A DNA stretch of 64,000 nucleotides from Selaginella moellendorffii (taxonomy: Eukaryota > Plantae > Lycopodiophyta): assembly GCF_000143415.4 (NCBI RefSeq), contig NW_003314269.1:148401-212400 (forward strand), read 5' to 3'. The notes beneath the pieces are model-generated. The model ran no database searches, had not been told where the DNA came from, and worked only from the letters and a program-made list of their open reading frames with translations. The translations under genes and the position numbers were made by a program. Positions 2,002 to 39,202 of this stretch are shown here, piece by piece. Positions within the stretch are counted from its first letter, which is position 1. Each line of letters opens with the position of its first letter.

Positions 2002-4838
2002 TGGAGAAGGGTGTTATTCCATTGTCTTAAATTCCAAGGGTTTATGAATCTTATTGTGACAAAGCTTAATAAAAGTATTCAATTTTACATTAATTATTGT
2101 TCATTAAATGATATATGTATCCCCAATATACCCTCTTCTTCATACTGTTAATCTTTTGGATTGTTTTGGGAAAAGCCATTAGTTCATCAAATAAAATTTG
2201 GTACTAGTAAATATTAAGAGTTGAGGAGGATGTTTCTCAGACTACTTTTTGTACACCATTTGATTTATATGAGTTTTTGGTGATGCTATTCGATTTAAAC
2301 AATACTTTAGCAACTTTTCAATGGATGATTGATGAGGTTTTTTTTTATATGCTAGAGGCAATTGTTGACTTTATTGATAATAACTTGATCCATTTAGAAG
2401 GGACATAGAAGAAGCATATCCATGTTAGATTGGCTATGGGAAACTAATTTAAAACTAAAGTATGTGTTTGGGAAATAATTTATCTTAGGTACCACATTTC
2501 TTGTGAGGGTTTACAAATTTATTTTGACAAATTTATGGCTGTTTTGAAGTTTGAAGTGTATGAATTATGTGTAGTACTTCTTTGGTAAGATGTAATATTT
2601 TAGTTATTTTATTGATCATCTTTCTAATTGTACTATATCATTGTAAGTGTTGTTGAAGTTATCAATATCATCTTTCATCTAACTTTAGTACTACAAGTGG
2701 GCATCTAAAAATTTTAAAGAAGTGTTGACGACTCTTTGTTAGCTTTTGAATTTGGACTTCTTAAAAGGTCATCCAATTTAATATAAGAATTTTAAAAAAG
2801 TGTTGACAAATTTTTGTAAACTTCTAAATTTGGACTTTCTAAGAGGTCATTCAACCTAGTATTATTCAAATATAATCTCAAATATCCCAAGACCTTTAAT
2901 CAATTGGAAAAAAGAGTACACTCTTTTTCATGGGCTCTTTCCCTTTATATTTGAATTTTTATGTATTGTCTTTCATGGTTGTTTACATTCTTTTTAATTA
3001 CACTTGATCTTTTATTTTGCGTTCAATATTGGTTTTGGAAGTGTGTTAATGAAAGAAAGCATGAGTGCACATAGTTAACATCATCCTATTATCTAACTAG
3101 CAAAGGTGAATTACTTCACAAAAAAGGAGTGTCTTGCAATAATTTAGAGTCTTAATAAGCTTAATGTATATTTGGATGGTTCTTAGACATTGTTGGAGGG
3201 TGATGATATTATAGTCATTTTATTATTAAAGCAAAAGAACCTAGTTAGATGTATTGCTCAGTGGGTTATAAAGCTTAAGATATATGATTTTGAGGTTGCT
3301 CATGTTCCTTGCGAGCCTATTATTATAACATTAAGAGATTTTTTAGATAAGGATTTTATGTTGTTAAGAGTTGTTGTGTTTGATATTTAGTGTCCAAAAA
3401 GTGTAAAACTAGATTTACCTAAGATTCATAAGGCTTAAAAAGTTGAGTCATAAACTCAAAGGCTTCATGATGAGTTTGAAAATTTTTCATCACTTACTAA
3501 TAATTTTTTATTTCAACATTTACATTCTCAATATTGCCTTAAGGATAATATTCTTTACTTTATAAGATTGATTTTGATAACCATTTACAGTTGGTGATGT
3601 TTTTTATCTTTATTTCACGCTTTCTTTATACTTATCATGACTTCTATTCTAAATGGGATATCATTGTATGAATGAGAAGTTGTATAGATATTTTTATTAA
3701 CAATATATACAATGTGATATTATTTGATATATGCATTGATGCTAAGTTCTTAATACTCCTTTTTGTGCTATAGAATGGTGGAGTCAATTATAATTTTCCA
3801 TTTTGTTTAAGTTAGTAGTATTTGATTTGATTGGGCCTCTTTTATGGTTGATTGTCAATAATGAGTTTATCATTATTGCTTCTGACTATTTAACTCATTA
3901 TATAGAAGTTAATACTCTTATTAGTATATTTATGACTATTGTTAAATATTTCCTCCTTAATTGAGTGGTGTTCTAGCATAGTGGAATTTCTCAAATAATG
4001 GTTATATATTTATAGTTTAGGTATTTCATGTTTTGATATCTTTATTGGGGATACACCACATTTTAATGAGTGTTTATCATCCATAGACAAATGGATTAGG
4101 ATGGTTATTTATTATTTCTCTAGTATATGGATGTTATGAGGATGTAGAGTTCCATAGATGCTTCACCATATAACCTCTTATATACTCATGATTTTATATT
4201 TCCAATGGAGTTAAATTTACCTTTATGATTGCTATGAGTTACCAATGAGATCAATATTTGACACATAATCTTCCACTAGTTTAAATGAAATTTTCTTAAC
4301 ACTTAGGCTATGTACAAGTGGAATAACAATGGCACTATAACTTTTACCATTGTTCATTTATAGAATGCAAAGTGAATAATTTAATGTTGGGTTTGTTTTT
4401 CCAATCTTATAGTGTGTGGTTTGTATAAAAGGCTCCTTGTCCAATAGAAGGGATTGTATCAAGTGTTGTAACAAATTGGATTACAAGTTTATAAGATTTA
4501 GTATATGAAGAAATCACTCTAAAGACATAATATTCAACAAACTAATTCTTAAGAAATTAAGCATATTAGCAGTTGAAGTGTTTCGTACAAATGGATTATA
4601 AATAATTTACACTATTTACAAATCTATTAGTGCCTCCTTCTGATATCAATAAGAGAGCATAACTTCCTTTTTTTATCCTTTGGAGAAGAGATGTTAAATA
4701 TATAGTTATGATACTGTATATTATTATTAACATAATGAGATTTTGATAGTTATTGAATTGATTTCAATTAGAATTACTTCCTCTTATATATCATTTAAGT
4801 TTTTGAATATATATATATTTGTATCTCATATACTCACA
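2002..4838 (+). mobile_element. Highly degenerate Ty3/Gypsy remnant (RT-RNaseH-integrase-3' LTR), same family as the 4840-21225 element
   Basis: Collinear with 17340-21225 (e.g. 2250 tacaccatttgatttatatgagttttt vs 17607 tacaccatttggtttgtatgagttctt). The decayed 3' LTR at ~4692-4838 ends CTCACA like the 5' LTR of the young copy. Confidence 0.85.
2815..2987 (-). mobile_element. Decayed Cassandra solo LTR inside the old Gypsy pol (partial duplicate at ~2737-2790)
   Basis: tgtaaacttctaaatttggactttctaagaggtca...ggttgtttaca is collinear with the LTR at 19775-19968. Confidence 0.8.
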
Positions 4839-5013: not shown

Positions 5014-7833
5014 TTGGTGGAGAAGAGGGACACCTTTGATTGTCCCTGAAGATTGTTTGGATTTGGAATTTTAGTTTAGATCTAGCTTTTGCATTGTCTA
5101 GATCTAACTTTTTCCATTTCCTTTCTTTTGTTCTTTCCCTTTAGGATTTTGGTTTATCTCTAGCTTTTTGCATTGTCTAGATCTCCATTTTCTTCTAGCT
5201 TTTGCCATTCCTCTTCTTTCACTTTTTCCTTTTCGTTCATCTTCATGGGAGATTAGCAATCTCCTCCTTTGATTCTGGAGCAGCAGTTGGTATAATTGCT
5301 TGACGCTATGCGTTTGAAATTGAACAATCAAACTCAATTGATGGCGACATTTATGGCATGTGGTACAACTCCTCCTATTCTTGGTGCCAATCCTTGCGTT
5401 CGGCTGGAGTTTTTTCGAGGGAATCTTGGGGATGATATGTACCATTGGTTCAATCACTTCACGGTGATTGCCACATATCATTCTTGGGATGATGCTCAAA
5501 GTTTGTGTGAGTTTCCCATGTATCTCTAAGGGACGGCGTTGCAATGGTACAATGGTTTGAGCATAGCCACTCGTGGGGATTAGAGTGTTCTCCTGGACAT
5601 CTTCAAATGCGCATTCGGACATGCTAATGATTGATGATGCCTTCCAACAATTACATTGTCTTCGCCAAGGGCTATCTGAGTCAGTGATGGAATTTGGTGT
5701 TCGTTTTTGACAAGCGGGGTAGCTTAGTGAAGTGTTCAAGAGCCGGCTCTAGTTCCTTCGGGAGGTCGACTGGCCGATGCTCCCAGTCCAAGTGTGGGTG
5801 GCACTACCTACTTGGATACCTGGTGTGGCTCAACGGAACCTCGCTCTAAGCCCATGGCTAGAGCACCCAAAGGCAGAAGGCGTGGAGAGTACCCACGAGG
5901 CCCGCGTAGGGCCACGGTGTTCCAAAAAGTTGCCCCAAAGTCCCAGACTGTGGAAAGGAAGAGCAACAGCCCTCTAGTGTGGTGACAAGGGATACAGCCA
6001 CATAGTAAGGAAGTCTTAGAGGACAGTTGGACTTAGTGGTCAGGCCTGTGGGCCTTGATCCAGTGGCAGTGTTGGTGAACACGGCCATGGACAGAAAGGG
6101 ACTTGGTGGGGACCAGAAAGGAGATATTGGGGAAGGCTATTTCCCATGTTTGCGGGCATCCTAAGGATGCTTAGGAGTGGATATGGGATGACCACTCATG
6201 GACGGATAGCCCAGTCTTGGAGAGACGGGATTGCAATGTAGGTGGTGTTGGACCACTGATGTGACCAAGGTGATTAGGCATGGCCTAGCGTAACGGGCTG
6301 GTATGTTGGTGGTGCCTTGGGGTGTATGTGGAGCACTTGGACCAAGTGCAAAAGTTGAGTGGCGTGGATGCCATTCGTGGGGTTAGCAAGCCCCAAGTTC
6401 TGAATGGGACTTATGGAGGTTGTGAATGAGACTCCTCCAAGTGGTCGAAGGTGCGGTTAAGTGACTAAAGTAGAATGGAAAAATTAGTCGCTTACATTAA
6501 CGATGTTCTTCACTTGGCACAACGTTATAAGACATCGCCTCTTCCACTTCTCGTTGCCCATCCTTTCGCTCCTCTTCCTGTAGGCGATGGTCCTATTCCA
6601 ATGGAGGTTGATGCTGCTGCTGCTTGAGTCCAAGGACAAGGGTGAGGATGTGGTCGTGGCCATGACGTTTGCTGTTGGGCATGTGATGAAGTTGGGCACA
6701 CTTATCAGCATTGTTGGCGTTTTTCGGATTAGCGACCTCCATTTCCTGGGTGGAGACCTTGGCGTCATTAACTTCCTATTGGTGCTACTGTAGTGGAAGG
6801 TCTAGAAACTATGATGCATATGGGAAACGAGGAGTCACGCGAGTAACAGAGGGACCTTGTGCGAATAAGTTAGTGACCCCTCCATCTTTCTTTTGGGAGT
6901 ATCATGAAGGGGTTCACTTGGCACCGGTTCATCCAGTGTTTACTTTCCAAGCTCATTTTTATAACAAGAGGTCTTCTATTATTTTCTCAGTGTTGGTTGA
7001 TACATATTTGAGTTTATCTTCTATTGCTCGACCTATTGCCATACGTTGCCATTTACATTTGCATTGTGCGGTGGAACTAGTTTTCATTCTTTATGGCAAC
7101 AGCTATACATATGCATGTGCACGGGATGAGGCAGACTTAGTTGTGCATGTGGGTAGTCTCGACCTTGAGTTGCAATCCTTGCGGGTGGTGCCGAGTCAAG
7201 TTTTTGACCTCATCCTTGGTATGGATTGGTTGCAATGCAATCATGCCAAGTGTGACTTTGAGGCTTCTCCCCCTTATCTCATACTTCTTTATATTTCATC
7301 CATTCCTTTTACTTTTGTACTTCTTTGTCCCTTTAAGCTCTATTTTGTTAAAGTGGGAATTGTCATTATCCCACTTGTAAAATAAGGTTTCCAATCCTTT
7401 ATATAGTATATAAATATAACAAAATTCAACTGCATTGAGGCACATGCCATTTTATTTTAAACAAGGAAATGTCTACTCAATCACTTCTCCTCCCCCTGCC
7501 ACTGCTTCACCTCTCTCTTCTCCTTGTCATCGTCGTCCAATTTCTTTCCATCCTTTTAATATTGGCTCAGTTGCTCCGAGTCTAGGTGGAGCCCAAGTCC
7601 CCATTCAATCTTTACTTTCCCCTTATTAATAAAACAACTTCGTAGACTTCCAATAACATGCTGTAACACGCTGTAACACTTCTAGTATAATGCAAATCCT
7701 CTCAAAGAATTGTCTTTTAATATTAATACAATGGCATGGAACCCCATGCCATAATAAGTTACATTTTTACATGGACATAATAAGTTACATGGACAATGTT
7801 AGAAATGGTAAAAGGTTAGGAATGGATGTACTA

Positions 7834-10800
7834 TTATTTACCTGATGGTTTGTCTTGTATGACCTTCCTCCGCTGCTCTTTGGCCACCTCAGGCTGGCCA
7901 TCGTCGTCATCATCGTCGTCGTCGTTATTGTGATCGTCACCATTGTGAGGACCATCCAAGTCCTCTTCGTCCTCCTCTTCTTCGTCCTCCTCTTCTTTGT
8001 CCTCCTCTTCATCCTTCTGCTCTTCCTGCTCATTATCTTTCTCTGGCTCCTCATCCCCCTCTTGCATTTCTTCCATAGGCTGCTCAGGCTGGATGGCTTG
8101 TTCTTCCAGGACCATCTTGGGAAAATCATCTGGCCGAGTCTCCATCTCAAAATACAAGACATCCATAGCCTGTTTTAGTGCGTGACCTAGGACCGTATCC
8201 TCACCCGATTGTCTTAACATGGTTTCTGCACGTTCTTGCACCCTTCGAAGACGATGAGATGAGAAAAACGTGGCCCTGACTTGAAAAGAATCCCTCATCC
8301 ATTGTACCTCTCCATTGAGATTGGGGAAGGGGAGTCCGCCATAGGAATCTGAGTCAGGAGGTGGTGACTGGCTGCTTTCACTCAGCCCTTGATGTGCAAT
8401 GAATGGCATGAGCACACACGCCATAACCGCGAGGCATTACCTATCATCTTTTCGTTGCCCTTCTTCCTTTTCGAATCAAACGCCTCTGATCCCGACGATT
8501 GTCCAACGTGCTTTCGCTTTTTATGACCACTGTCAATTTGAGCTTGATCTGCAAGAAATGGCATGAGGACCCACGCAATAACCATGACGCTTTACTTCCC
8601 GTCCTTGGAGGCTCTGTCGTGCCTTCCGCATCCTCAGGTGCCTGCTCCTCAATTCCCTTTCGCTTTCGTTTCTTATGCACCCGTTCTACAGAAATAGCAT
8701 GAGGACATACGCGATAAGCACACAAATGCTTTTACCCTTCCTCCTCTGCCCTGGTCGGTTGTCCATCTCTTTGTCTACAGCGTCTGAAAGCTGTTTTGCA
8801 GGTAGCCTAATTCGAAGTTCACGACATCTCCTTGGCACTTGAACTGTATATTATTGCATCAACACATGCAACATCCCATAATATTTTTAAGTTACCTTTC
8901 ATAAAGTTTTCCATTGGTTCAACTCGTTCCCCTGAAATACAAACTTAGATAAGTGCATGGGGCCATATGTCATGATCGTACCTATTTCGGAACTCTCCTT
9001 ATCACTCTCCGAAGCCTCCCCCTCCTCCACTGGAGGCACGTTGTTCCGTTCGATTTCCTCGACGCGATCTGCAAGAACATTAGTTAATTGCGTGGGGCCA
9101 CATGCCATCAAACCTTCAGGTTCTTGTCATGAGGTCTGCGCTGCTTGCCCTAGTCTCTTTGGAATTTGAGCTGCAAGAAGCAATGGCATAAGAATTCACG
9201 TATAACAAAAATGATTGGTACCTCTCGTCTGTTGTACTTGGCTGGTGCTTGCCTGTTTTGCCTTTGAAGAAGTGTCTCCTGCAAGGAATGGCATGAGACC
9301 ACACGCCATTGCAAATATAATTTGTACCTCCTTTTTTCCTATTGCTTGTCTGTTTGTCCTTCTTCGACGTGCCACTAGTGCGCTTTTCAGTCCTCGTGTC
9401 TGAATATTCACAACGATCTATAATCAAAATGGCGTGAGGCCTCACGTGACCTTACCTTGTGCAGGTTGTGAGCTCGGCCCAACATGGGTATCTTCAACAG
9501 TAGCTGTTAACGCCGTTTCAGTATCTGGGGGTGGCCACGCTCCTGCATACAGAGCTTGTGAGATAACATTTAAACTTAAAGTGCGTACTCACCAGGTTCG
9601 CAGAGAAGATACTGTTTTTCTTTGGCAACTGTAATTATATGTTCCATTGAAGTCACCTCTTCAATGGAGTTTGTCACCGCAACACACGGGACACCCTTGA
9701 GTAGTGCGGCTCGAAAGAATAGTCCGCCGCAGTTGTACTCGACAACGCATTTGCCCTTGGAGTCGGAAGCAGGTGACCCACCTGCTATTGCGTTGAAGAC
9801 TCAGCTGAGCATTTCCCATGCTGCACCTGGAGCTTTCTCTGGATTCGAAAGCTCCATAGCCGTCTTCAGTTCCTCAGGCACGGGTAAATTGACCTCCCTC
9901 AGATCAATTCGATCGGCCTTGTCGAACGAAGCTGGGAAGTCATTCCAGTCCCACTCTGCTGCAGGACCAATAACAAGGGCGAGTGTGAAGATGTGGACAT
10001 TCGTCAGTATCTTCTTTTTAGCCATTATCCCATGGATCTCCCGCATCTCCTTGCCTTTCAACCGAGCCTTCACCTCGTTCAAGGCCTTTCAGAAGTTGTG
10101 ATAGGATTCGGAGTCGTAGATCATATAGTGGACTGAAGATTCCACCTCCGCAAGTCCCACCATTAAGTCAATGATGGAGCTGACTTCGTCTGCATAAGTG
10201 ATCTCCTCGTTTGTGAAATCCATCACACAAAAGATGTTCTTGACCTGCTCATCTCTGCGGGAAACGATGCTCCTCCACCTTTGATCCTCATCCGAATTCA
10301 CGTATACCCGGTAAGGTTCTCGATAGGCCTCTACTGCGGGGTCGAGCTGTTTCTGAAGCCGGCGGTCGACATCCCTCTTAATGAAATTTGGATACTGATC
10401 CAACTTCTTAGCTTTACTTTTCGTGGCATCCCGCAGCAGATCGATGAACTTGGGGGCCCCCTTCACGTACTCGTCGATGTCTTCATTTGACAACTCCAAC
10501 TCTTCCATCATCTCTTGCATGGTGTCGATGCTCACCCTCTCCACGGCCATTTGCTCGAAGATCCAATCCTTCAATAGCGCACGAGCTCTCAGAGTCGTGC
10601 ACAAGTCCTCGTATGTCACAATATGGCCGGGAGTCATTTTGGTCTTGTTGAAGACTACCTCACCACGTAGAAGAGCATTAGCCACTGTCAGAAGGTCGTC
10701 GTCGTCTAGAAACCGCGAGAAACGCAAGGCGTTGAGCTTCAAATCATTGGGCTTCCGGCCGTCCTCCACACCCATTGAGTTTAGCAACTCCCCGTCATGG

Positions 10801-12410
10801 TACCTCCTCAGCACATCTACCCATTTGTCAAAAACAACTTTTGTCGCGAGTAGAATGTTATGGATGCTGAGTGTGTCATTGACCCCCAGTGTTTTCGAGA
10901 GAAGACTCGAGAATTCCTGCAATGGAAATGGCGTGAGGCCACATGTTATGCCACATGCAACGAGGCTTACCTGCCAAGCGCTAGTTGCTAGTGCACGTCC
11001 TTGTCCTGGTTTTTGTGGCTTCTTCAGTTGAACCCAGAGCTTCCATGTTTGTGCCAATATCTCGTGCAGACCCGATTTGTAGCACGTTTCTTGCTTGACA
11101 TTCTGCGCATGGGAGATGTATATGATAGATTGGAGGGGCGAGTTGCCTTTTATCAGGCAGACAACTCTTGTCTTGAAGACTTTCTTCACCTCCTCGCCCA
11201 CCATAATATCCACAACTATCTCTTGCATCGCCAAGCTAGAATGCTGCCCGGAGACGGCATAGAACCAGATGTTCTGATCGTCCAACACCTTCCTATTGAT
11301 CAAGTCTGGAAACCTCGTCTCGCCCTTCATTGTTCGGTAGTAGGGGATCACGTCTGCGATGTCGGGTGTTACTAGACTTGCCAGCATCTTCTGCTTCAGT
11401 TTCTCCACCCACTCATCAGATACTAGCCTGTGGTTGTATTTGCTTTGGATGTCGATGTGGCTCACGTCGATTGTATATACTTTGTTGGAATAGTAACAAG
11501 TACTATTATCTGCGACGATTTTTGCTGCCTCTTCTTGCTCTTTCTGCTCTTTGCGGCTCTTCTTTTTGGTGGGTGTAGTGTTCGAACCCGAGGCAATGGC
11601 ATCACCGAGTAGCTTCTTTTTTGGAGCAGGAGAGTCGGACGTCGGCTTGAGCTTGACCACCCTTTTCTGCTTCGGGGTAGTTTCCAGATCGACCCCCTTC
11701 CCCTTCGCTTCGCGAACTGGAGTCACTCTCAACGGCTCAATGTTGGAATATAGTTTTTGAACATCGCCGTAGGTGAGGTCCGTGGATTCCATGTGATCTT
11801 CATAGACCCGCAGCGTCTTTGAAATTGTGGGCCTCCTGGACAACCTCTCCCTAGCTCCCTCTAGGAATTCCTTATAGCCGCTGCCCCCTCCGGGAAGCCG
11901 CTAGGATGTGCAAGGTGGATCTTGAAGGCGGACGCTGTCTCTACCACAAGTGCCAGTCCATATTCTTGCATGGAACTGCATGGAGTGTCTGTCACTTGGA
12001 TGAGGATCCCCATGCATTCTTTTCTCCCACCATCTGTGTTGTACAGCCTCAGATCCTCGCCTTCCATCCCAAAAGTCCAACTGGTGAGCTCCTCCCCCTT
12101 CTCTGCATCCACATTGACAGTGGCTGGAAGAAGAACGCAATTCCTCGCCTGTTCAGAAATGCACAACAATTAGAGCTGACAGATGAAAAGCTAGCAGCTG
12201 GAAATAACGTGAGGCCACACGCCATTCACCACTGCATCAGATGTCTTGAGGCTGCATCCTAAGATGGCGTGAGGCTACACGCCATCTGTAACCGGACTGC
12301 ACTCGAGAGCCCAATCGGTGCATGCCAATGTTGCTACTGAATGGCATGTGGCCTCATGCCATTTTCTACTTGGCCTAAAAGACTTACCATTTGAAGCTGA
12401 ATGGAGGCAT
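7834..12410 (-). pseudogene. Transposon cargo gene, multi-exon: ParB/DGQHR-like domain + degenerate N4/N6-MTase-like domain + Lys-rich mini-exons + acidic tail
   Basis: ORF 10089-11843 continues in frame through two TGA codons (10089-91 and 9801-03, probably CGA>TGA) to ~9590. There is a frameshift near 11850. About 10 GT-AG introns of 45-56 nt lie between 8400 and 9600, plus one at 10917-10970. Start codon position is uncertain. Confidence 0.7.
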
Positions 12411-13051
12411 GACAATCGAGGCCGGACTCGCTGGCGAATGTGCACTGTGTGTGCAGCGGATCGTAGCAGCAAGGCTACTCTGCCACTTACAGCTGGAGAG
12501 TGGCGCTGAAATCTCCCAGAACGCCAAGTGGGCTGCGTGTGGGTGGCGGAGTGGGCGGCGGAGTTGGCGGAAAAGTTACAAACTGGGTGTGTCTTGAAGT
12601 GGACGCCGATGCACACGAGCGCGATGCGAGCGCGAGTGTGATGCAAGCGCGAGTGGACGCCGATGCACACGAGAAACCTATAGAGAAGGTAGATGAGCGC
12701 GAATGTGAGCGTGATCGCGACTGGGAGCGCGATGGGAGCGCGAGTATGAAGCAAAATGCAAAACCTAACCTCACACGCGCGAAATGTCACGACGGTTGGT
12801 AATCCCGCAACGTCATCATTCCTCGGACTTGGGCGCCACCATTAATTTCTGGATCGCCGCGCGCATGTATGCATGTGAAATCCAAAAGAAATCCGCAACG
12901 TCATCATTCCTCGGACTGCATGCACGCGAAATCCAAAAGAAAGATCATGATTGGGATATCATTTAATACCCTCGCTATATTTATACCATGCATGATTGGA
13001 TATTCCAAATCATCTTGTATTTCCAAAAATGCCAGATGTTCAGCTAAATAA

Positions 13052-14983
13052 AGAATGGTATACAATGTCTTTCTTGATGACCCTGCAAAGAAGCATCTCG
13101 ATCGGACACCACATGAGACCACACGAGCCTTACAATGTTTCAGGGGCATTTGCTATAGATCCGACCGTTATTTTGCTCCAAGATTCTACAGTTTGGTGTG
13201 CATTGACCTTTCCATCGACACTGCAAAGGGACATCACAATCAGATGCGGGATCACAAGAAACTAACTTCACTAACTCTGGTTTCACCAAGATCTACGTAA
13301 GGAGTTATGAAATGAAAGGACCCTCTCTATTGAAATGTGTTTATGGTCCTAGGGGCATTGTGACATATGAAAGGATTTTGCATCAAGTTCTGTATTTGCA
13401 TGTTTATCAAGTTACTGAATTGCTAAACCCTAAACCCTCCCTAAATATGTGGCAAATGCTGTGTGAAGAAAGATGCCCTTTTTGGGCAAATGCTGTAAGA
13501 GGTAGATGCCGAGCAGTTACACGGGGAATAATCTTGGCGCGGATCGCTGACATAGCATGGCAAAGTTCGAATCACTGACATGGCACAGCTGGATCGAGGC
13601 AAGGACATGATGTGACAAAGTTCAACGTCCGACAGCAAAGTCTAGAAGCTACTCAGTTTGAAATTTGTCAGAGGAATTATAAGATCTGGTTTGTCAGAGG
13701 ATTTGATGTGACGTTCAAGCGTGTGGGCTCATGCAATTTTGATCCCAAAAAATGCACCAAAAAATGCTCGGCGTCATCTGGCGTTATCTCTTAAATGGCG
13801 TGGGGCCACATGCCATTTTAAGGGGCACATAGGAGTATATTCCTAGAATATTCTAACACGCGCGAGATTTTTTTGAGTTTTCTGGAGATCCAACCGTTAG
13901 ATCGCAACTAGATTTTACAGAATGGTATACAATGTCTTTCTTGATGACTCTGCAAAGAAGCATCTCGATCGGACACCACATGAGACCACACGAGCCTTAC
14001 AATATTTCAGGGGCATTTGCCATAGATCCGACCGTTATTTTGCTCCAAGATTTTATAGTTTGGTGTGCATTGACCTTTCCATCAACACTACAAAGGGACA
14101 TCACAATCAGATGCGGGATCACAAGAAACTAACTTCACTAACTCTGGTTTCACCAAGATCTACGTAAGGAGTTATGAAATGAAAGAACCCTCTCTATTAA
14201 AATGTGTTTATGGTCCTAGGGGCATTGTGACATATCAAAGGATTTTGCATCAAGTTCTGTATTTGCATGTTTATCAAGCTATTGAATTGCTAAACCCTAA
14301 ACCCTAAACATGTGGCAAATGCTGCGTGAAGAAAGATGCCCTTTCTGGGCAAATGCTGTAAGAGGCAGATGCCGAGCAGATGTATCTCAGGCTAGCGAAG
14401 GGGAAAAACGAAAGCTAGCTATAAACATGACGGGATGCAAATAGATTACTAGGCTGGTCCTGCGAAAATCAGAAACCATAATTGAAAACATTGAAAATGC
14501 AAAAAGAAAGGTTTATAATATTTTTGAATTTTAAGCAACCAAAGGAATGTAAGTAGGGCATGTGTTTGTAAGTTTAAAAATGCCTCAACCACTTAAATTC
14601 CCAAGTAAATAAAGTTGTTTCTATTTTTGGTACAGGTAAACTTTATAGCGTGTGGGCTCATGCAATTTTGAACCCAAAAATGCACCAAAAAATGCTCAAC
14701 TAGCATTATTCTTTGAATGGCGTGTGGCCTTATATTGCCATAAATGGACGTACACACACAACATAATTATTCCTTTACACGGCGAATAATCTTGGCGCGG
14801 ATCGCTGACATGGCATGGCAAAGTTCGAATCACTAATATGGCACAGCTGGATCGAGGCAAGGACATGATGTGACAAAGTTCAACGTCCGACAGCAAAGTC
14901 TAGAAGCTACTCAGTTTGAAATTTGTCAGAGGAATCATAAGATCTAGTTTGTCAGAGGATTTGATGTGACGTTCAAGCGTGTG
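13052..14983 (+). repeat. Internal segmental duplications within the DNA transposon
   Basis: 13052-13516 matches 13919-14379; 13517-13723 matches 14775-14983; 13716-13800 resembles 14645-14720. This explains the duplicated short ORFs in the ORF track. Confidence 0.92.
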
Positions 14984-15493
14984 TTATTTTTGAATTCTCG
15001 AACTCATTCCTAGGTCTATCATTTTTGTGCGCCGTGTTCTTGGTTCCGCTGAGCGCAGTGAGTGCTGCTTGTGTAAGCGGCGTTGTGAGATGTGGTTTAT
15101 GCGTCTACGAGCGGTTGCGGCATTGCGAGCGCCATTGCGAGCGGCAGTTTATGCGAGTGGCAGTTTGTGCGAGCGGCGCTACGAGCAGTTGTGGTGGTGC
15201 GAGCGGCGCTACGGTACCACTAATGGTATGAGGGCTCATGCCATCTTAGGGCTTGCAAGTTCATCACTAGCATATTGCCAATAGTTTCTTTACCTGCCTG
15301 TAGCTGTGTGTTTATCAAGATGGCATGAGGCCTCATGCCAATTTTGTGAATGCGAAATTTCACGTGGGTGTCAATAGCATGTTTGAATAATGGCATGTGG
15401 CCTCATGCTATTGAGGTTGTTTAGTATGTTATGAATTAGGCCATTCTCTAATCATTTTTTGTATGGTCTTAACTTCTTTTCTGCACTTTCAGA

Positions 15494-16710
15494 ATGGCCT
15501 CCACAAGTGCGACGCATGTTCCCTCCGTGGATCTTAAGAACCGTGCTACATGGATTCAGGCAAAGGTGTTTCTAAACAACCTCGAGGGGGAGGTGGTAGC
15601 TGAGGGCTTAGCCACAGTTGTCAATCCAAGAGATGTGGTTGCTAATCAAGAATTGGGCTGGGATGATATTGGAGTTGCGATTTTAGAAGTTGTTGACACA
15701 GAAGAAAACAGTCTGACTATTGGAAGCATTGTGCGGTGGAAATTGAGGCACTTAGTGTTTGAGAATGTGAAGGATTCACAATCAAACACCACTACAACTG
15801 ATGACAGAACATCTCTTCATGGGAAAAGAAAGTACACCTTCCTAAAGCGCAGCCAAAGGGATTTGAGCAACAAACCGAAAAGGCAGAAAATGGCGATGGA
15901 GGTTCGAATGGTCTCGACAGTTGCTTGTTGCAAGAGGAGGTGCTGTCAACATGCTGATTGGGATGCTATTGAAGAGGAGAGAGCAAGATACAAGACATTG
16001 TCCTGGAAGGCAGCTCGCAATTTTGTGTATGAGGCATTACGGTCATCTGTTGATGCTTCAGAACATCAGGTGGGGGGCATGGTCTTCCAGAGGGGTTTGG
16101 TTTGCATGAAGGCATGGAGAATCATTTATGGAGTCCCTCAAACCACATTCTACAGAATCAAAACTGAGTTCGAAGAACAAAGGGTTCAACAGGCAGTCCA
16201 TAGGAACGACGGTACTCACAAAACCAGAGGTCATGTTGTATATGGAGAGGCAATCTTCAAGAGGTTTGTCGAGACATGTAGCGAGCAGCAACCACATAAA
16301 ACCCGCCTCTTGGAAGATGGAACTCGAGACACCCAACGAGTTCTCCCTTCCATGTATACCAAGGGGGCCATATTGGAAGATGTGAATCGGGAATTCCAGA
16401 GTAATGGCACAGGAAGTTGAGCCAATCTAGATTTAGTAGATTGTGGAGCAACAGGTTCAGGGATGTGAGTATAGGAAAGTACTCCAGCTTTTCAAAGTGT
16501 GACGAGTGCACTGCTATCAAAATGGCTTTGTCGAAGAATTCTTGCATCGCTCAAGAGCGAGAGACGTTGGTTAGAAGGTGGCTCGACCACAACATCGAGC
16601 AGAGAAGCTGCAGGACTACATATTATCATAACAAGTTCTCTCCATGGAGAGACCTGACTCTTACCTCTGCATCATCCACGACAAAATGGACTAGAAAAAG
16701 ACGTGCATTG
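15494..16710 (+). pseudogene. Truncated Sola2-like transposase with an N-terminal Tnp1/En-Spm-like domain
   Basis: Motifs CCKRRCC, VCMKAWRIIYGV, H.N.GTHK, LPSMYTK, then (frameshift) FSRLWSNRFRDVSIGKYSSFSKCDEC..H..Q..CR..YY, then (frameshift) YLCIIHDKMD*KKT, which resembles the Sola2 DGMDQxK first catalytic Asp motif. Coding similarity stops at ~16710. Confidence 0.7.
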
Positions 16711-19700
16711 AATAATATCTAAATGTTCTCACCATTAAGTTATATGTCTGGCTAATAGGAATGATGTTCATCTTGGAAAGCTCACCACACGCTCAATGAA
16801 CAAACAAATAGTGTGTGCGCGCATGCCATCGCTCTTCTTTAGCTTCAGATTCGGCTTGTTCACCTTGACAATGAGATTTATTATACAACCAGATGGACTC
16901 AGTCTGGACACAAAGTCACCGCGCTAGTCACCATGCCCCAGATATGTCTAGCCCCTGGACATAAAACATATAATTTCACGTCATTTTCAAATACTTGAAA
17001 ATTTGTACCTAGTCCCATTTTACTGAATAAATCCCACTTTAACGAAATAGAGCTTTTTTACTTTTACCTCTGCTTCCATTACTTTTGTCCCCCCACTATT
17101 TCCTCCTATATTTCCATCTTATTTTGCTCTTCCCTTTTTTGATCCCTTTGACAATTTTTGTGTTGCAGTGGTTGACTGGCTCATGAAAGAGTATTCTGAT
17201 CTCTTTGACTTTGACCTATTGTCTGGGGCCAAGATTACCACAAGTCATCCGATTCCAACTAGGGATGCTTGTCCAATCAAGGTTCTTGTTCATCGTCGAT
17301 CACCCAAAGAGATCAATATTTTATGTGTAAATGTCAAGGAGATGTTGGAGAAAGGTGTTATTCAAAAGTCGCAGAGTCTTTGGCCATGTGAACCTCATCT
17401 TGTGATGAAGCTTGATGGGAATATTCGTTTCTGCATCGACTATCATCCATTAAATGAAGTGATGATCCCGGATGTATACCCTCTTCCTCACACTGCTGAT
17501 CTTTTGGATCGTCAGAGGTGAAATCGTTAGTTCACCAAACTAAATCTTGCTTCTGGGTACTGGCAAGTACTGATGGCCAAAGAAGATATTCTTAAGACTG
17601 CTTTTCATACACCATTTGGTTTGTATGAGTTCTTGGTGATGCTGTTTAGTTTAAACAATGCTCCAGCAACTTTCTAATGAATGATGGATGGGGTTCTTTG
17701 CAATATATCGAAGATGACTATTGTTTGTGATATTTGTGATGTTTGTAATGTGTTGGATCGGCTACAAAATGTTGGTTTAAAGCTGAAGTGGTCAAAGTGC
17801 ATGTTTGGGTCCAAAGACTCAACTTATCTTGGGTATTGTATTTTTTGTGAGGGTTTGCAAATTGATCCTGACAAACTTGTGGCTATTCTAAAGTTCCCTA
17901 CTTTGAAGTGTGTGAATGATGTGCAACACTTCTTGGGCAAGGTGTAGTATCTCGGTTGTTTTGTGGATCATCTTTTTTATCGCACTGTATCATTGCGAGC
18001 GTTACTGAAGTCATTAACGTCATCTTTCATCTGGTCTCTGGATTGTGAGCTGGCATTCGTGGATCTCAAAGAGCTATTGATGACTCCTCCAGTTTTGGTA
18101 TATCCTAACTACACTCGACTTTTTATTTTGTGCGTGGATGCTTCTGACATTGGTCTTGGAGGAGTGTTGATGCAAGAAAGCTTGAGTGTGCTTAGTCAGC
18201 ATCATCCTATTGTGTATATAAGCCGTACATTATAACCAGCGGAGATGAACTACTCCATGATAGAGAACGAGTGTTTAGCAGTAGTTGAGAAACTTCATGA
18301 GAAACTTCATGCATATTTACATGGTTCTTGAACGTTACTTGAAGGTGACCATGCTACCATTACTTCATTATTGAAGTGGAAGAACCTAGTTGGTCGTACT
18401 GCTCGGTGGGCTTTGAAGTTTTAGATATATGATTTTGATGTTGTTCATCACTTAGGGAGTTCTATGGCTGATGTTGATGCCTTTTCTCGAGCTCCTCTTT
18501 CTTCTCCACTCTCTTCTCATGTTTCTGGCGAGCCTGTTGTTTTAGCATCTGTGGATTTTCTAGACGAGGATTCTATGTTGTCGACAGTTGCTATACTTGA
18601 TATTCAGTGTCCACAAGGCGCAAAGCAAGATCTACCTTCTCTTGATGGGGTTCGCGAGGCTCAAAAGCTTGAGCCGTGTATTCAAAGGCTTCGAGGGGGG
18701 TTTGAGAATCCTAGATCACTTGCTGATGACTTGCCTTTTCAGCATTTACATTCTCAATATTGCCTTGAAGATGGCCTTCTTTATTTTGTGGAGATGGATC
18801 CTGATGATCATTTATGGCTGGTGGTGCCTTCTGTCTTTATTCCATGGTTTCTCCATGCCTACTATGATTCTCCTGTTCTAGGTGGGCACATGGGACATTG
18901 TCGTGTAACTGAGAAGCTGCGCAAGTCTTTCTATTGGCTGGAGATGCGACATGATGTTATCTGGTATGTCCATAGCTGCGTTTGGTGCCAAGTTCATAAT
19001 ACTCCCCCTCGTGCCGCGGAAGGACGGTTTGGAGTCAATTGCATCCCATCTGTTTGAGTTAGTGGCGTTTGATCTTATGGGACCTTTTCCACGGTCGACT
19101 GTTGGCAATGAGTATGTTATTATTGCTTCTGACTACTTGACTCGTTGGGTGGAAGTTGGTGCTCTTACTAGTGCCTTTGCAACTGTTGTTGGATACTTCC
19201 TCTTCAATTAAGTGGTGTTTCAGCATTCTTGTCTAGTGTGGATTCTTTCGGATAATGGTCTCGCATTTATGGCTGAGGCATTTCATGTTTTGACATCTCA
19301 CTTAGGGATACGCCACACTTTCATGAGTGCTTATCATCCACAATCAGATGGTCTAGTGGAATGGCTCGTTTGGACATTTAAAGGGATGATTGCGAAGTAT
19401 GTGAGCTTTCAGCATTCGGATTGGGATGGTTATTTGCCATCTTTTTGGTATGCATATATCACAAGGGTGCAGAGTTCTGTTGGTGCTTCACCATATAAAC
19501 TCCTATATGGTCAACCAACGGAGCTAGGTTTACCTTCGCAATTGCTACAAGCTGCTAATGATAAGTTGTGGGATCAGTATTTGATGAGCATTCTTCCACT
19601 TGTCTGAGTAAAGTCTGCTGAACACTTAAGCCGTGTACAAGTGGGACAACAATAGTGCTACAACTCCCATCATCGTCCACCTGCGAAATACAAAGTGGAT

Positions 19701-19774: not shown

Positions 19775-20823
19775 TGTAAACTCCTGAGTTTGGACTTCCT
19801 GGGAGGTCACCCAGCTCAGTATTATTCAAACCCAAGGACGCTTAACCCCAAATATCCCAAGACCCTTAACCGATTGAAAAAAGGGGTGCACTCTTGTTCA
19901 TGGGCCCTTTCCCTCTATATTTGAACCCTATAGATCGTCTCTCAAGTCGTTTTCTTTGGTTTCTTACAATCCACCACACTTCCCTGCAAGTTCATGCCCT
20001 CGTGAACGGAAGTTGAGAGCTGCAGCTCTCCCGAGAGCCCCGCTCTCTTGACACCCTACCCCTCGGGCTCTCAAGTTGTTCTCTTTGGTTTCTTACAATC
20101 CACCACGCTTCCCTACAAGTTCATGCCCTCGTGAACAGAAGTTGAGAGCTGCAGCTCTCCCGAGAGCCCCGCTCTCTTGACACCCTACCCCTCGGGCTCT
20201 CAAGTTGTTCTCTTTGGTTTCTTACAATCCACCACGCTTCCCTACAAGTTCATGCCCTCGTGAACAGAAGCTGAGAGCTGCAGCTCTCCCGAGAGCCCCG
20301 CTCTCTTGACACCCTACCCCGAGAGCCCCGCTCTCTTGACACCCTACCCCTCGGGTCGAGCCCAGCGGAAGCAAACTAGACCAGCCAGATGTCAATCAAC
20401 ATGTGGTGTGATTCCCTTAGCCAACCAATAGAGTCGGACCTGAGACCGCTTTGATACCAAATGTAACCTCCTGAGTTTGGACTTCCCAAGAGGTCACTTA
20501 GCCCAGTACCAACAGAGTCGGACTTGAGACCGCTTTGATACCAAATGTAACCTCCTGAGTTTGGACTTCCCAAGAGGTCACTTAGCCCAGTACCAACAGA
20601 GTCGGACCTGAGACCTCTCTGATACTAAATGTGAGCTCCTGAGTTTGGACTTCCCGGGAGGTCACCCAGCCTAGTACTATTCAAACCCAAGGACGCTTAA
20701 CCCCAAATATCCCAAGACCCTTAACCGATTGGAAAAGGGGGTGCACTCTTGTTCATGGGCCCTTTCCCTCTATATTTGAACTCTATGGATCGTCTCTCAA
20801 ATCGTTCTCTTTGGTTGCTTACA
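19775..20823 (-). mobile_element. Cassandra-type TRIM with 5S rRNA-like LTRs
   Basis: 194-bp LTRs at 19775-19968 and 20630-20823 (TG..CA), perfect 5-bp TSD AAAGG (19770-74 / 20824-28), minus-strand PBS TGGTATCA(A/G)AG (tRNA-iMet) and PPT GGGAAGTGTGGTGGAT, non-coding interior. LTRs contain GTTAAGCGTCCTTGGG..TAGTACTAGGCTGGGTGACCTCCCGGGAAGTCC (5S A-box to C-box) at 20647-20701, with a variant at 19792-19846. Confidence 0.93.
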
Positions 20824-21068
20824 AAAGGACCGTATCAGGTGTTGCAGCAAGTTGGACCACAAGTTTATGAGGTTCGGCATGACGTCCAGCAGGCCGATCC
20901 TCTAGAGATTGTGTATGTGTAGCAATGGAAACGCTTTATACAAAGGGATCAGGAGCAGTCAATACCACTTATAGATCCACTGATACCTCCTCCTGACGTT
21001 CCTCTAGATCCCGGCCCATTTACAAGAGAACCTTGATGGTTTTTCATTATTCCGAGAGGAGGGGATGA

Positions 21069-35096: not shown

Positions 35097-35671
35097 GGAA
35101 CTCGGATTGCCCTGCCGCAAAGAACCTACAACTCGATCGATCGAGCAGAGAACCTACGAAATATCGATCGCTCGATAGAGATTTCCCTCGCAGCGCCTCG
35201 AGCTTCCAGCGCCTAGTGGCGGCTCGGCCTCGTCGAGCGCCCCTTCTCGCACGAGATTCTCGAGAGTGAAACAAAGAAGAAAAAGAATGTGGGTCATGGA
35301 ATTTGATCTGACCATAGACCTAGATATTTATACTACTAAGTGGGCGGCCCATGGGCCCGTTACGCTAGGGTTCTTTCGCTGAGGGGATGAGCCGCTGAGC
35401 CGCTAGCCGCCAGATCACAGTAAGTCTCGTTGTTTCTGTGATCATTGTGGTTACAGTGAGGAATTTGATCTTAAACTCTTCCCCTTCTTGGATTGCTTGG
35501 AAATTTCTTGGATCTGGATTGGAGCTCCTCGCATATCCAGGGATTCTTCCCTGTCTTGATCACGTTTCTTGGCCTGGATGCGCTTTCACTGTCGACATTT
35601 CGATCTCATGGTCTCGGATTTCCTGGATTCCAGGGGCATCGTCTCGGATTTCTTGGTCGCCCGACGCTGCG

Positions 35672-37054
35672 ATGGAAGATCAGAGGTACCGCAAGCAAGT
35701 CGCCATGTCCCTCATCATGGGAGCGCTCATCTACTGCCGCAACGCGAGCAAGCGGCGATTCGACCGGCGCAAGTCGGCGATCGTGAGCATCGTGTCGGAG
35801 ATCCAGCAGGGGATCCTCGACGGCGCGCCGGCCAAATCCACCTGGGTGAGAGACATGCTCATGCACCACACCGACACCTGGGACACGACGATCTTCCCGC
35901 AGTACGACGATGGCCAGTTCTGGAAGGATTTCCGCTGCACCAAGGCGACCTTCGAGTGGCTGTGCTTCACGATCTTCCAGCCGTGTGGATTCGAGGGGAA
36001 TAGAACAGGTCCCAACTGGCGCGTCATCTCCCTCCGCCGCCGCGTCGCGATGCTCCTCTGGCGATTGCTCCACGGCGGCCGCGAGCACGCCATCGCCAAG
36101 ATCTTCTTCTGCGACCAGTCCACCGTGAACAAGATCGTCCACAAGGGGCTGGGGATCATCGCCAAGCACTGGACCGACGCTTACATCGGGTGGCCAACCG
36201 GGGACCGAGCTAGGGACATTGCCGCAAAGTTTGAGCTCGAGACTGGCTTCCCCAGCGTGATCGGAGCGGTGGATGGAAGCCACATTCCCATCACCACCCC
36301 GAGCATCGATCGCTCGAATTACTACAACGACAAGTCCTTCCACTCGATGATCCTCATGGGTGCAGTCGACCAAGACGGGTTTTTTCTCGAGATCGACGCT
36401 GGGCTTTGCGGGAGCTTGCACGATTCGCAAGCTCTGGCCAGCTCCAGGATCGCGAGGAGAGCCGGCGAGGGGCTCATCGACCAGCAGGGGTACCACCTGG
36501 TCGGGGACTCGGCTTTCAATCCTCCAAGGCCGTGGTTGATGTGTCCATACCGGGGTGGTGGCCAGCTTACGCCCCAGCAGGAGTCTTTCAACCAGGCGCT
36601 CGCCTCTGCGAGAGCTTCCATCGAGCGGGCCTTCTGCCAACTTAAGTCTAGGTTCCGGGTGCTGCTCAAGAAGATGGAGGGCGACTTGGACACCACCGTC
36701 CAGATGATCGGGGTGTGCTGCACGCTCCACAACATGCTGCTCTCGCAGAACGAGAGCGCCGACCCGGCCTGGATTGAAGAGTCCCGCCAAGCTCTCGAGT
36801 CGACCCGAGGTGTTTCTTCGTCCGGGAGAGAGCCCACGCTGGAGCAAGCCGCGGCGGAGGTGATGATCGCCACGGCGGGTCTGCAAGAGCTGGAGTCAGC
36901 CACCGCGACGTCCGATGCCGCGCGTCTGGCGAGAGTCATGGAGCCGCTGCCACTCCCGGCAGGATTCAACCACACCGCGGACATGCAGCGAGCTCGCGAG
37001 ATCCGCGACGGCCTCGCCGAGATGTTATACTCCAGGAAGCGGCAAAAGACTTGA
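35672..37054 (+). CDS. PIF/Harbinger transposase-type nuclease (HARBI1/ALP1-like), intronless
   Basis: GAVDGSHIPI, GSLHDS, LVGDSAF, WLMCPY, FNQALASARASIERAFCQLKSRF; DDE residues intact. Confidence 0.93.
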   Translation: MEDQRYRKQVAMSLIMGALIYCRNASKRRFDRRKSAIVSIVSEIQQGILDGAPAKSTWVRDMLMHHTDTWDTTIFPQYDDGQFWKDFRCTKATFEWLCFTIFQPCGFEGNRTGPNWRVISLRRRVAMLLWRLLHGGREHAIAKIFFCDQSTVNKIVHKGLGIIAKHWTDAYIGWPTGDRARDIAAKFELETGFPSVIGAVDGSHIPITTPSIDRSNYYNDKSFHSMILMGAVDQDGFFLEIDAGLCGSLHDSQALASSRIARRAGEGLIDQQGYHLVGDSAFNPPRPWLMCPYRGGGQLTPQQESFNQALASARASIERAFCQLKSRFRVLLKKMEGDLDTTVQMIGVCCTLHNMLLSQNESADPAWIEESRQALESTRGVSSSGREPTLEQAAAEVMIATAGLQELESATATSDAARLARVMEPLPLPAGFNHTADMQRAREIRDGLAEMLYSRKRQKT

Positions 37055-37083
37055 TTGAGGTTGGGGGAGAAGAGTTTACTCTG

Positions 37084-38520
37084 TTATACAACGCCTTCGG
37101 GTTCTTGGCCTGGGATCACGGTCATGGCTTGGCCGCTACTGCCGTGGATCTCCGGCCTGAGCTTCTCCAGCTCCTTGAGGATGAACTTGCGAGGCCCGAC
37201 CGGGATCTTCATCTCCATTAGATCATCCTTGTCGAGCAGCAGCAAGTTGGTCCAGTCTACGTGCGACGCCGCGAAGTAGCTCGCGTACTGGTCCTTGCCG
37301 ATGCTCTTGAGCCAGCTGAACACCTGGTTGTCGATCTCAAACTCGGTCGGCTGCGCGCTCGCCTCCGCCAGCAACACGTTCGTGAGGTTGACGACGGCGT
37401 CCAGCACCTCCTTGAATCCCTGTGCCGAGGCGGTGTCATCGAAAGTCCCAATCTTCTCCACCACCTTGTCGACGATGGAGTCTACGAGCAGCTGGTTGTT
37501 TGCGGACTTCTTCATCCTCTTCCCGGCGACTTCACGAGCAGCGGCCTCGTCGCCCAGGCATCCCCTCGCGCCACCGACGCCGCTCTGGAAGCGCGACCGC
37601 AGCGCCGCCTTGGGCCGCAAGTTGAGCCGGCTGTGGATCTCCTGGAGCGTCTCGTCCGAGAAGACCAGCTGCTCCGGGTGCTCGAGCTCCTTGTTCTCGG
37701 CCAGTCCGGCCTGTGAGAGCAGCAGCTTGAGCTCCTTTTGGTACCGACGCAGCTCGATGTCCCACTTGTCCCGGTAGCTCTCCCACTGCCTCCTGGGATG
37801 CCCGCGCTCGCCCATCTTGTCGCCGATGCTCGTCCACAGCTCCAGATGCGTTGACATTGTCTCAAACTTGGCCTGTAACTCCGTCCGGAACCTCACCAGG
37901 TCCTTGACTTCCTCGATCCCGTAGCGCTTGTTCTTGGCGGTGTTCTCGTCCCCGGCCGACTTTCCTTTGGGATCCTTGCTCTTGGTCGAGTCGGCGGCGC
38001 TCTTCTTCTCGGAGCTCTTTCGCTTCCTCCTGTGCTTCGTCCCCTCGTCTGCCTCCTGCGTCGGGGTGTCTCCGTCCGAGAAGGACGATCCATCGCTCTG
38101 GGAGTCGGAGCGGAGAGCTGACGAGGGTGGCGATGCCCGAGGTGGCGAAGTGTTGATGGCCGGAGGTGGTGTAGCGGAGGGTGGCACTGGTCCCGGTCCC
38201 GGTTGCATTGCAGCGCCTGGGAATGCATAGCCAGCTCTTGGGAATCCGCCAAAGTCGCCGCCAGGAAAGTTGGAGTCGCCGCCGCCGCCGCCGCCACCTC
38301 TCATGTGTGACGGCCATGAATGCGACCAGTCGTAAGCGTTGTATGGAGCTGGAGCGCCGTAGAAAGTATCCGGGCGTGGATGAGCCCAGCGGGGCCAAGT
38401 TGGAACGTCCGAGCCATTGTAAGGAGGGGTCGTGTTGTTGTTGTTGGTGGTGGCGGCGGCGGCTACTCCTTCTACCACTGCTGCGCCATCGCGTTTTCTT
38501 TTTGATCTCTCTTTGGCCAT
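37084..38520 (-). CDS. Myb/SANT (trihelix)-like protein with C-terminal SAM domain, intronless
   Basis: RYGIEEVKDLVRFR...LWTSIGDKMGERGHPRRQWESYRDKWD (trihelix); VFSWLKSIGKDQYASYF...LLLLDKDDLMEMKIPVGPRKFILKEL (SAM). Confidence 0.85.
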   Translation of the reverse strand: MAKERSKRKRDGAAVVEGVAAAATTNNNNTTPPYNGSDVPTWPRWAHPRPDTFYGAPAPYNAYDWSHSWPSHMRGGGGGGGDSNFPGGDFGGFPRAGYAFPGAAMQPGPGPVPPSATPPPAINTSPPRASPPSSALRSDSQSDGSSFSDGDTPTQEADEGTKHRRKRKSSEKKSAADSTKSKDPKGKSAGDENTAKNKRYGIEEVKDLVRFRTELQAKFETMSTHLELWTSIGDKMGERGHPRRQWESYRDKWDIELRRYQKELKLLLSQAGLAENKELEHPEQLVFSDETLQEIHSRLNLRPKAALRSRFQSGVGGARGCLGDEAAAREVAGKRMKKSANNQLLVDSIVDKVVEKIGTFDDTASAQGFKEVLDAVVNLTNVLLAEASAQPTEFEIDNQVFSWLKSIGKDQYASYFAASHVDWTNLLLLDKDDLMEMKIPVGPRKFILKELEKLRPEIHGSSGQAMTVIPGQEPEGVV

Positions 38521-39202
38521 TGGAAAATAATTTAATCTGCGAAGAAAAACGATCAAGAAACTCCATCCACCAACAAAGAAAGTTCTATGACTGATTAAAG
38601 TCTTCTACAGAGGCAAGCACTCAAGCACACCAGAAATTTTGCCCGCGATCGACAAGAAGAAACCAGCTAACACGAAAATGTCCACAAACACGAAAATCTC
38701 CACAAACAAAAGGATTTCATCCAGACTCGAGCAATCCAGACAACACACGGGCGGAATTCCGGCAACCTAGGCGGGATCGATCGATCGTACCTGGAAATTC
38801 TTGCGCTCTCGATCCTCCGCCTAGATCCCTCGCGCTACCGCATTCTTGCAAGATCCTGCCATGAGAGGGAACAAGGGAGAAATCCTCCGCTAGAGGCCGG
38901 AATGCACACTCCCTCCATCGCTCCCTCCACAAATCTAAAAAATGCGAGGGAATAAAAGGAAAAACAAGGGATTTACAAGGAAGCGATGTCATACCATAGT
39001 AGGTCTAGAGAGCCTTCGTCCGACACGGCGCTCGCAGATCATGGAAGGAACCCATGTCATAACCCTAGTCCGGCCGCGCTCGATGCCCCCGTGGCGGCCA
39101 CGTCAGACCCCCTGCCGCGGTTCGATTCCCCTCCCCACCATTTTCTATAAAATTCACTGTTTAGATAAGAGTTCTCCAAAATAGCAACGAATGGATCTAC
39201 TT

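Follow-up and report, generated by a model that had tools for sequence, protein, structure and literature searches.

A 22-bp palindrome repeated through the non-coding DNA of a DUF7869 transposon from the lycophyte Selaginella moellendorffii as a putative site for an element-encoded regulator

In Arabidopsis, VANC21 binds a 9-bp motif in the introns, intergenic DNA and terminal non-coding parts of VANDAL21 (PMC5735166). VANC motifs accumulate by tandem repetition and the exon–intron layout of VANC genes varies (PMC5735166; PMC10398659). TnpA and the AtMu1 transposase are described in a preprint as sequence-specific activators at clustered cognate motifs at element termini (bioRxiv 10.64898/2026.08.24.746577). 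The known systems of sequence-specific self-activation that we compared are all Mutator-like or CACTA elements of flowering plants. Here we analyze a 64-kb stretch of the genome of the lycophyte Selaginella moellendorffii (positions 148,401 to 212,400 of contig NW_003314269.1, hereafter the window), in which a 9.7-kb DNA transposon carries two divergent genes, one for a presumed transposase with a DUF7869 domain and one for an accessory protein, together with 21 copies of a 22-bp palindrome in its non-coding DNA.

The likeness to VANDAL/VANC lies in an accessory gene within a DNA transposon, a variable exon–intron structure derived from repeats, the gain and loss of blocks among copies, and a family-specific motif confined to non-coding DNA, introns of the accessory gene itself included, as is also the case here. 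VANDAL elements are Mutator-like, VANC has DUF1985/DUF287 and its motif is an asymmetric 9-bp word in tandem repeats, whereas this lycophyte element has a DUF7869 transposase, an accessory protein without a Pfam match, and a palindrome of 22 bp found one per intron of ~50 nt between unrelated flanks; in the parts scanned, Pfam gave no match to a Mutator-like transposase, DUF1985 or DUF287. With Spm/CACTA TnpA and AtMu1 the element shares a two-gene layout and an element protein with clustered cognate motifs (putative here), but their motifs are terminal, whereas one or two of the 21 copies here lie near an end and most lie inside genes. Its ends also differ from those of CACTA. By analogy, the element likely works like the VANDAL and TnpA/AtMu1 systems but is no member of either, because transposase, accessory protein and motif type differ. 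Our literature search found no description of this family or its motif, which may be catalogued in Repbase or in subscription journals outside that search.

The preliminary description of this locus had reported one palindrome in nearly every small intron of one gene. The pattern is real, far beyond chance and broader than one per intron: the palindrome belongs to the non-coding DNA of the whole element, and confinement to one gene's introns proved too narrow a view, 13 of the 21 copies lying outside the 11 small introns concerned (three in intron 1 of the same gene, three ahead of the transposase, four in the spacer, two near the left end and one at 16808). A scan of the window at up to six mismatches gave 22 matches, 21 of them in the element and one, a poor match, at 59711. 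Predicted introns of the accessory gene hold 11 of the 21, and all 21 lie wholly outside coding sequence, as would 46% of start positions (the copies are not independent). To avoid circularity, the scoring matrix was built from the 13 copies outside the 11 introns, and p-values of intron scores were taken from 500 dinucleotide shuffles. With this matrix, eight of the 11 introns score 17.7–30.6 bits (each p = 0.002), and the weakest of the 21 copies reaches 15.1 bits. Nothing comparable occurs in 12 exon segments of the accessory gene (best 7.7 bits), which bears out the reported lack of copies in exons, or at 54,258 positions outside the element, mostly host-gene DNA (best 10.3 bits). No host gene within the window has a motif-bearing intron, and exact matches in viral contigs number zero.

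The introns of the accessory gene are on the minus strand. The predicted first intron (12149..12387, 239 nt) begins with GTAAGT directly after the ATG, ends in CAG and gives an in-frame exon 2; it contains palindromes at 12204, 12264 and 12341 (28.5–34.9 bits). The predicted intron at 10917..10970 is in phase 0 and holds a palindrome at 10928–10949 (29.1 bits). The ten predicted introns downstream are all in phase 1, and seven carry a clear copy: 9400..9455 (9429–9450, near the 5' end, 21.2 bits), 9279..9327 (9288–9309, near the 3' end, 30.4 bits), 9069..9113 (9087–9108, near the 5' end, 30.6 bits), 8932..8981 (8952–8973, near the 5' end, 18.1 bits), 8686..8735 (8694–8715, 17.7 bits), 8549..8595 (8558–8579, 25.3 bits) and 8394..8440 (8403–8424, 27.3 bits). 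Eight of the ten introns originally credited with a copy thus have a clear one; that at 9171..9221 keeps an eroded copy with one half-site left (~9183–9204, 4.0 bits, p = 0.014), and the "degenerate copy" claimed for 8844..8895 is unsupported, being a possible remnant not above chance (−2.5 bits, p = 0.12). The intron at 9543..9592 has no significant copy (−9.2 bits, p = 0.28), in agreement with the first account of it as motif-free, which had placed its boundary at 9591. In six introns the motif ends 8–12 nt before the 3' end, with an invariant A 14–18 nt from that end; in three others it stands at the 5' end.

The remaining copies are given, like the element itself, without strand. Two (7429–7450 and 7731–7752; 19.4 and 25.9 bits) lie between the left terminal inverted repeat and the last exon of the accessory gene in this copy. 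Four (at 13716, 13795, 14645 and 14717, spanning 13716..14738; 15.1–33.1 bits) lie in the partly duplicated spacer between the two divergent genes; within 13049–14983 this spacer has two recent internal duplications of 300 nt and 209 nt, 97% identical. Three more (at 15223, 15320 and 15390, spanning 15223..15411; 30.5–33.3 bits) lie before the acceptor that stands upstream of the transposase ATG, probably in an intron of its 5' untranslated region, and two distant relatives of the element (L001 and L002) also have an acceptor just before the transposase ATG. The last (16808..16829, 23.7 bits), on the far side of the transposase deletion, precedes an acceptor-like site by 19 nt. The transposase coding sequence itself contains one unrelated 22-bp palindrome (16634–16655, 10 of 11 pairs), probably by chance.

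The eight strong intron copies are 74% alike, and the 20-nt bins on either side are 28–32% alike. This contrast speaks against simple tandem duplication alone, and the earlier statement that the rest of each intron is not conserved holds on average; the exception is the pair at 8549 and 8394, which shares its flanks (73% over 77 nt). Across the 21 copies the two arms show no covariation: symmetric positions 6 and 17 form Watson–Crick pairs in 10 of 21 copies against ~10.7 expected from the same counts, and positions 9 and 14 in 4 of 21 against ~7. Such independent variation is as for two half-sites that would be read on DNA. Position 7 of the half-site is T in 42 of 42, while positions 5–6 are CA in 23, CG in 16, TA in two and TG in one. 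Unselected decay of CpG would yield CA and TG about equally, so the one-sided counts suggest constraint, though the copies share ancestry. Proteins can read TpG and methylated CpG in the same way.

The element is a whole DNA transposon copy (7336..17054), decayed and internally deleted. Its left terminal inverted repeat (TIR; 7336..7358, plus strand, 23 bp) and right TIR (17032..17054, minus strand) are identical at 22 of 23 bp, as expected of a cut-and-paste transposon. It is flanked by TTTA on the left and TTTTTA on the right in this one decayed copy, likely a 4-bp target site duplication (TSD) that is not clean. We aligned the contigs of two sequencing runs, X1 and X3, to the window and compared copies of the element weighted by depth. 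The empty site is seen as a joint from 7331 to 17057 in four contigs of X1, and a high-depth X3 contig stops at 7335; the element is inserted in LTR (long terminal repeat)-retrotransposon sequence, with an aspartyl-protease match just to its left. As 39,387 X1 contigs align to the window, mostly 95–100% alike, and an empty site exists, the sequence marks the copy in the window as a decayed member of a young and abundant family. Between 7300 and 17100 nearly all differences of this copy from the X1 majority are A>G (42 places) or T>C (39 places), and the copy has therefore decayed by changes of the C-to-T type on both strands. Compared with the high-depth contigs it also lacks ~0.9 kb near 7786 (7769–7786), the transposase start around 15504 and, beyond 16706, a further 0.9 kb or more.

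The transposase gene (15494..16709, plus strand) is broken and internally deleted, with 85–96% identity to residues 84–487 of the protein P0010. P0010 matches PF25273 (DUF7869) with an E-value of 2.6e-41 and has an Atlas lead to the DUF7869 family (0.81). From the context of the element we take DUF7869 proteins to be transposases, and a literature search on DUF7869 found no paper. The catalytic motifs are presumably of the Sola type. By eye, the short TIRs resemble the Sola1 TIR printed in PMC3845634, and the probable TSD is likewise 4 bp and AT-rich; against this, as it stands, the TSD (TTTA/TTTTTA) is not the AWWT of Sola1 (PMC3845634), and this element has a second large gene. PMC4455052 lists the Sola groups. 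Three distant relatives (L001, L002 and L003) have transposases of 32–34% identity, and none includes the accessory gene. L002 has another 22-bp palindrome (36–113; 10 of 11 pairs), unlike that of the window, twice within one 56-nt duplication (shuffle frequency 0.013); its transposase, of 34% identity, begins ~800 nt further downstream, and the palindromes may lie outside that element. L001 has a single 22-bp palindrome just upstream of its transposase (53–74), whose outer five bases per arm equal those of the window motif, and short repeated palindromes downstream (3619–3850), neither of them above chance.

The second gene was labelled a cargo gene in the preliminary description; accessory gene is the better term, because the high-depth contigs of the family carry it and distant homologues exist. 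It occupies 7842..12390 on the minus strand, with its ATG at 12390, 12 predicted introns and at least ~1,250 codons, and it probably continues past 7841, where a donor-like site suggests further exons. In this copy a 1-nt frameshift near 11883 and three TGA stops interrupt it; among the differences listed, most contig depth has a sense codon at 9129 and one base more at 11883. The proposed minus-strand GT..AG introns hold up as predictions: all 11 have canonical ends once two boundaries are corrected (9543–9592 and 8394–8440), and their predicted excision leaves a single frame from 11879 to 7837, ~1,160 codons with the 3 TGA stops. Retaining any one intron gives added stops or a frame shift in nine of the 11 cases, the 54-nt and 45-nt introns being readable through. 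The acceptor of 8394..8440 had been noted as mutated and the intron as starting at 8395; it is CAC in this copy and CAG in X3 (84.2/84.2 depth) and X1 (664,868/670,848), a mutation of this copy only, and the boundary is 8394. Two runs guessed to be RNA gave 13 and 5 contigs, none with a splice joint, and so speak neither for nor against splicing.

These 11 introns are uniformly short, at 45–56 nt, and the nine exons between the ten phase-1 introns are all multiples of three (p ~5e-5 under equal phases, the splice sites having been chosen to keep frame). A comparison with homologues dates one of the introns. The donor of 10917–10970 coincides exactly with the end of homologues 25–29% identical (P0004 and P0008), others start just past its acceptor, and in P0014, a spliced RefSeq protein of S. 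moellendorffii, the two residues that flank it are likewise adjacent; the intron is therefore old. The other ten positions lie where no homologue is alignable.

Within this array, a 694-bp block (8543..9236, minus strand) with six introns and four strong motif copies is absent from most contig depth: the joint from 8542 to 9237 has a depth of 93 in X3 against 6.6 across the block, the letters between the two sides of the joint being not known. The block includes 399 exonic nt, so the frame is kept when it is absent. Among the 43 distinct breakpoints listed, eight fall at motifs where 6% would be expected (p = 0.004), and within non-coding DNA the count is 8 of 31 (p = 0.03); both figures are for displayed rows only, and repeats invite mis-alignment.

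A full HMMER search with the accessory protein gave eight matches at E ≤ 0.001, and word-index searches gave none. Two of the eight were dropped as spurious, P0005 for RTX-type repeats and P0006 for low-complexity repeats. Four annotated S. moellendorffii proteins on two other scaffolds (P0003, P0014, P0015 and P0016), 23% identical to the C-terminal half, may be another family of element or a domesticated copy. The N-terminal domain shares a GQH motif with its homologues and has an upstream arginine where ParB-family motifs lie; in hhalign its best local matches are on ParB-type motifs, at E-values of 0.08–0.11, below the shuffled maxima. The C-terminal half aligns, in separate runs, on two main motifs (IV and I) of beta-type N6/N4 methyltransferases at E-values of 0.06–0.41, within those of shuffles. 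If that alignment is right, the catalytic DPPY-type motif is not intact, the aligned stretch keeping only the aspartate; an Atlas lead for the homologue P0014 (0.84) points to a cluster of which 39% carries PF01555. Predicted folds were uninformative, with predicted local distance difference test (pLDDT) scores of 33.5 (unusable) and 60.1: Foldseek gave no match at E ≤ 0.001, and the best hit of a VIA fold search (Z 6.4) was to generic alpha/beta domains. Sequence searches of the PDB had no match to the N-terminal alignment, and their matches to the C-terminal one were all unrelated; tblastn against phages and plasmids gave nothing significant, and no relatives of the N-terminal domain were found in viral contigs.

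The ParB-like and methyltransferase-like labels of the accessory protein are leads only. ParB/parS, a bacterial partition clamp and its palindromic site, resembles this locus in its repeated palindromic DNA sites, and the GQH motif and upstream arginine of the accessory protein lie where ParB-family motifs do; yet the similarity is not significant, no helix-turn-helix (HTH) is seen here and the model has a pLDDT of 33.5. A ParB-type HTH fused to Dam is described from algae and chytrids (PMC4738411), and elements of the present sort go unmentioned in the accessible parts of a Marchantia N4-methylcytosine preprint and of PMC10853773. A speculative reading, to which we give little credence, makes the protein a fusion of a ParB-family clamp with an inactive DNA-methyltransferase fold, with protein and site forming a bacterial-style partition pair. 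The clamp would load at the palindromes, present in nearly every intron, as at parS and spread along the element, shielding the element from silencing or pairing its ends; since CA and CG but not TG are tolerated at half-site positions 5–6, the site might be read equally when methylated, and each exon–intron duplication in the protein's own gene would add a loading site.

The explanation that we favor, with a probability of roughly 0.55, is that the palindrome is a putative double-stranded DNA site for a dimeric regulator encoded by the element, spread by old exon–intron duplication and kept by selection. The accessory protein is the likely candidate binder, the transposase being the other, and the bound protein would keep copies of the element transcribed or mobile against host silencing. 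Duplication of an exon plus its intron would add a site without breaking the frame, and is the likely source of the ten phase-1 introns and their exons of whole codons; the intron flanks would then have drifted while selection held the site. The invariant A and the branch-site consensus suggest that in six introns a half-site may also serve as the branch site, which would let a 22-bp site fit a 50-nt intron. Five copies in spacer or subterminal DNA also speak for a binding site, as does the different palindrome upstream of the L002 transposase. Of the four readings first put forward for the intron motif, binding sites placed away from coding constraint thus fits best; exon–intron amplification probably explains the small introns, and the two combine.

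Several observations weigh against it. Two of the 11 introns have no motif, and the conservation of the motif was compared among paralogous sites of one copy, within one species, where recombination or conversion between sites could also keep copies alike. Multiplication, at least, does not require the full array, as most depth is without the 8543–9236 block, and an array so labile and partly dispensable speaks against each site being strictly needed. Pfam, PHROGs and NCBIfam give no match for the accessory protein and no DNA-binding domain has been established in it, its ParB and methyltransferase profile matches being within the range of shuffles. The relatives L001 and L003, in both of which there is little non-coding DNA, have no significant repeated 22-bp palindrome.

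An unlikely but still serious alternative is that the array is a neutral residue, in which one palindrome-holding intron was multiplied by exon–intron duplication and by recombination or conversion, with no current function. The single phase of the ten downstream introns, their whole-codon exons, the shared flanks of introns 8549 and 8394, the variation of the region among copies and the breakpoints enriched at motifs are all in line with this. Traces of exon kinship are present too: the starts of the exons show slight similarity (p = 0.04), and the peptides of a few exons of the accessory gene echo one another. But at the DNA level such kinship is confined to 2 of 45 exon pairs (p < 0.05), and flanks at background beside a motif 74% alike are hard to reconcile with shared descent alone. 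The copies in the spacer, near the transposase, in intron 1 and in the phase-0 intron of old position also tell against a neutral residue, and the one-sided CpG pattern points to constraint. Were the site bound instead by a host transcription or chromatin factor recruited by the element, the same evidence of placement and half-sites would apply. This seems to us distinctly doubtful, as the 54 kb of flanking DNA, mostly of host genes, has no match, and a relative (L002) appears to use another palindrome. Moreover, 22 bp is long for a plant transcription-factor site.

The palindrome might instead act at the RNA level, where a hairpin or splicing signal would govern the inclusion of small frame-neutral exons. 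Some copies fold at −10 to −14 kcal/mol, a branch-like half-site lies in six introns where the consensus would place the branch site, and exons of whole codons permit skipping. Against such a role, which we consider improbable, stand the lack of arm covariation, zero matches in Rfam, foldings of only −0.2 to −10.5 kcal/mol for the eight strong intronic copies on the transcribed strand, the three introns with the motif at the 5' end, and the copies in spacer and subterminal DNA. That each intron is introner-like, the insertion of a small palindromic mobile element, is already largely refuted and very improbable. Uniform intron lengths are in its favor, and proliferating symmetric introns with palindromes are known in fungi; these symmetric sister stwintrons (PMC8469720) resemble the present case in having palindromes inside related spliceosomal introns, but they are alike over their full length and scattered in unrelated genes, whereas the introns here share only the motif and belong to one element. 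The intron bodies are unalike, the palindrome is internal at two different registers, the 10917 position is common to homologues 25–29% identical, a single phase throughout is not expected of random insertion, the intron-bearing host genes of the window are free of the motif, and among the joints listed none skips exactly one intron. The introner and hairpin readings are both disfavored because there is no shared intron body, one intron position is old, some copies fall in DNA that is probably not transcribed and the arms do not covary.

Elsewhere in the window, a convergent pair of intact genes at 35399–38604, one for a Harbinger-type DDE nuclease (ALP1-like) and one for a protein with Myb/SANT-like and SAM domains, may be a Harbinger element or a co-domesticated pair. 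Of four host proteins of the window that were looked up, three have letter-for-letter identical entries, and for two of these the named cluster members are from S. moellendorffii. An LTR-like region at 19775–20824 has three 129-bp and three 84-bp tandem units, and by eye the 84-bp unit resembles a triplicated LTR end with a primer-binding site. Between 53000 and 56000 lies an AT-rich island (26–30% GC) with a 310-codon B-lectin open reading frame (E 2e-7) and repeats related to 467–555.

With the site and two candidate proteins defined, the proposal is directly testable. Should the array prove to be a neutral residue, it would nonetheless show clearly how symmetric exon duplication multiplies introns. 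The 22-bp site, which does not occur in the 54 kb of flanking DNA examined, would also offer a highly specific handle for epigenome targeting. If the proposal is true, a third transposon lineage, this one in a lycophyte, would have evolved self-activation through a cognate motif on its own, by way of an unrelated protein and a long palindrome, and the self-activation site would have shaped the exon–intron structure of the gene.

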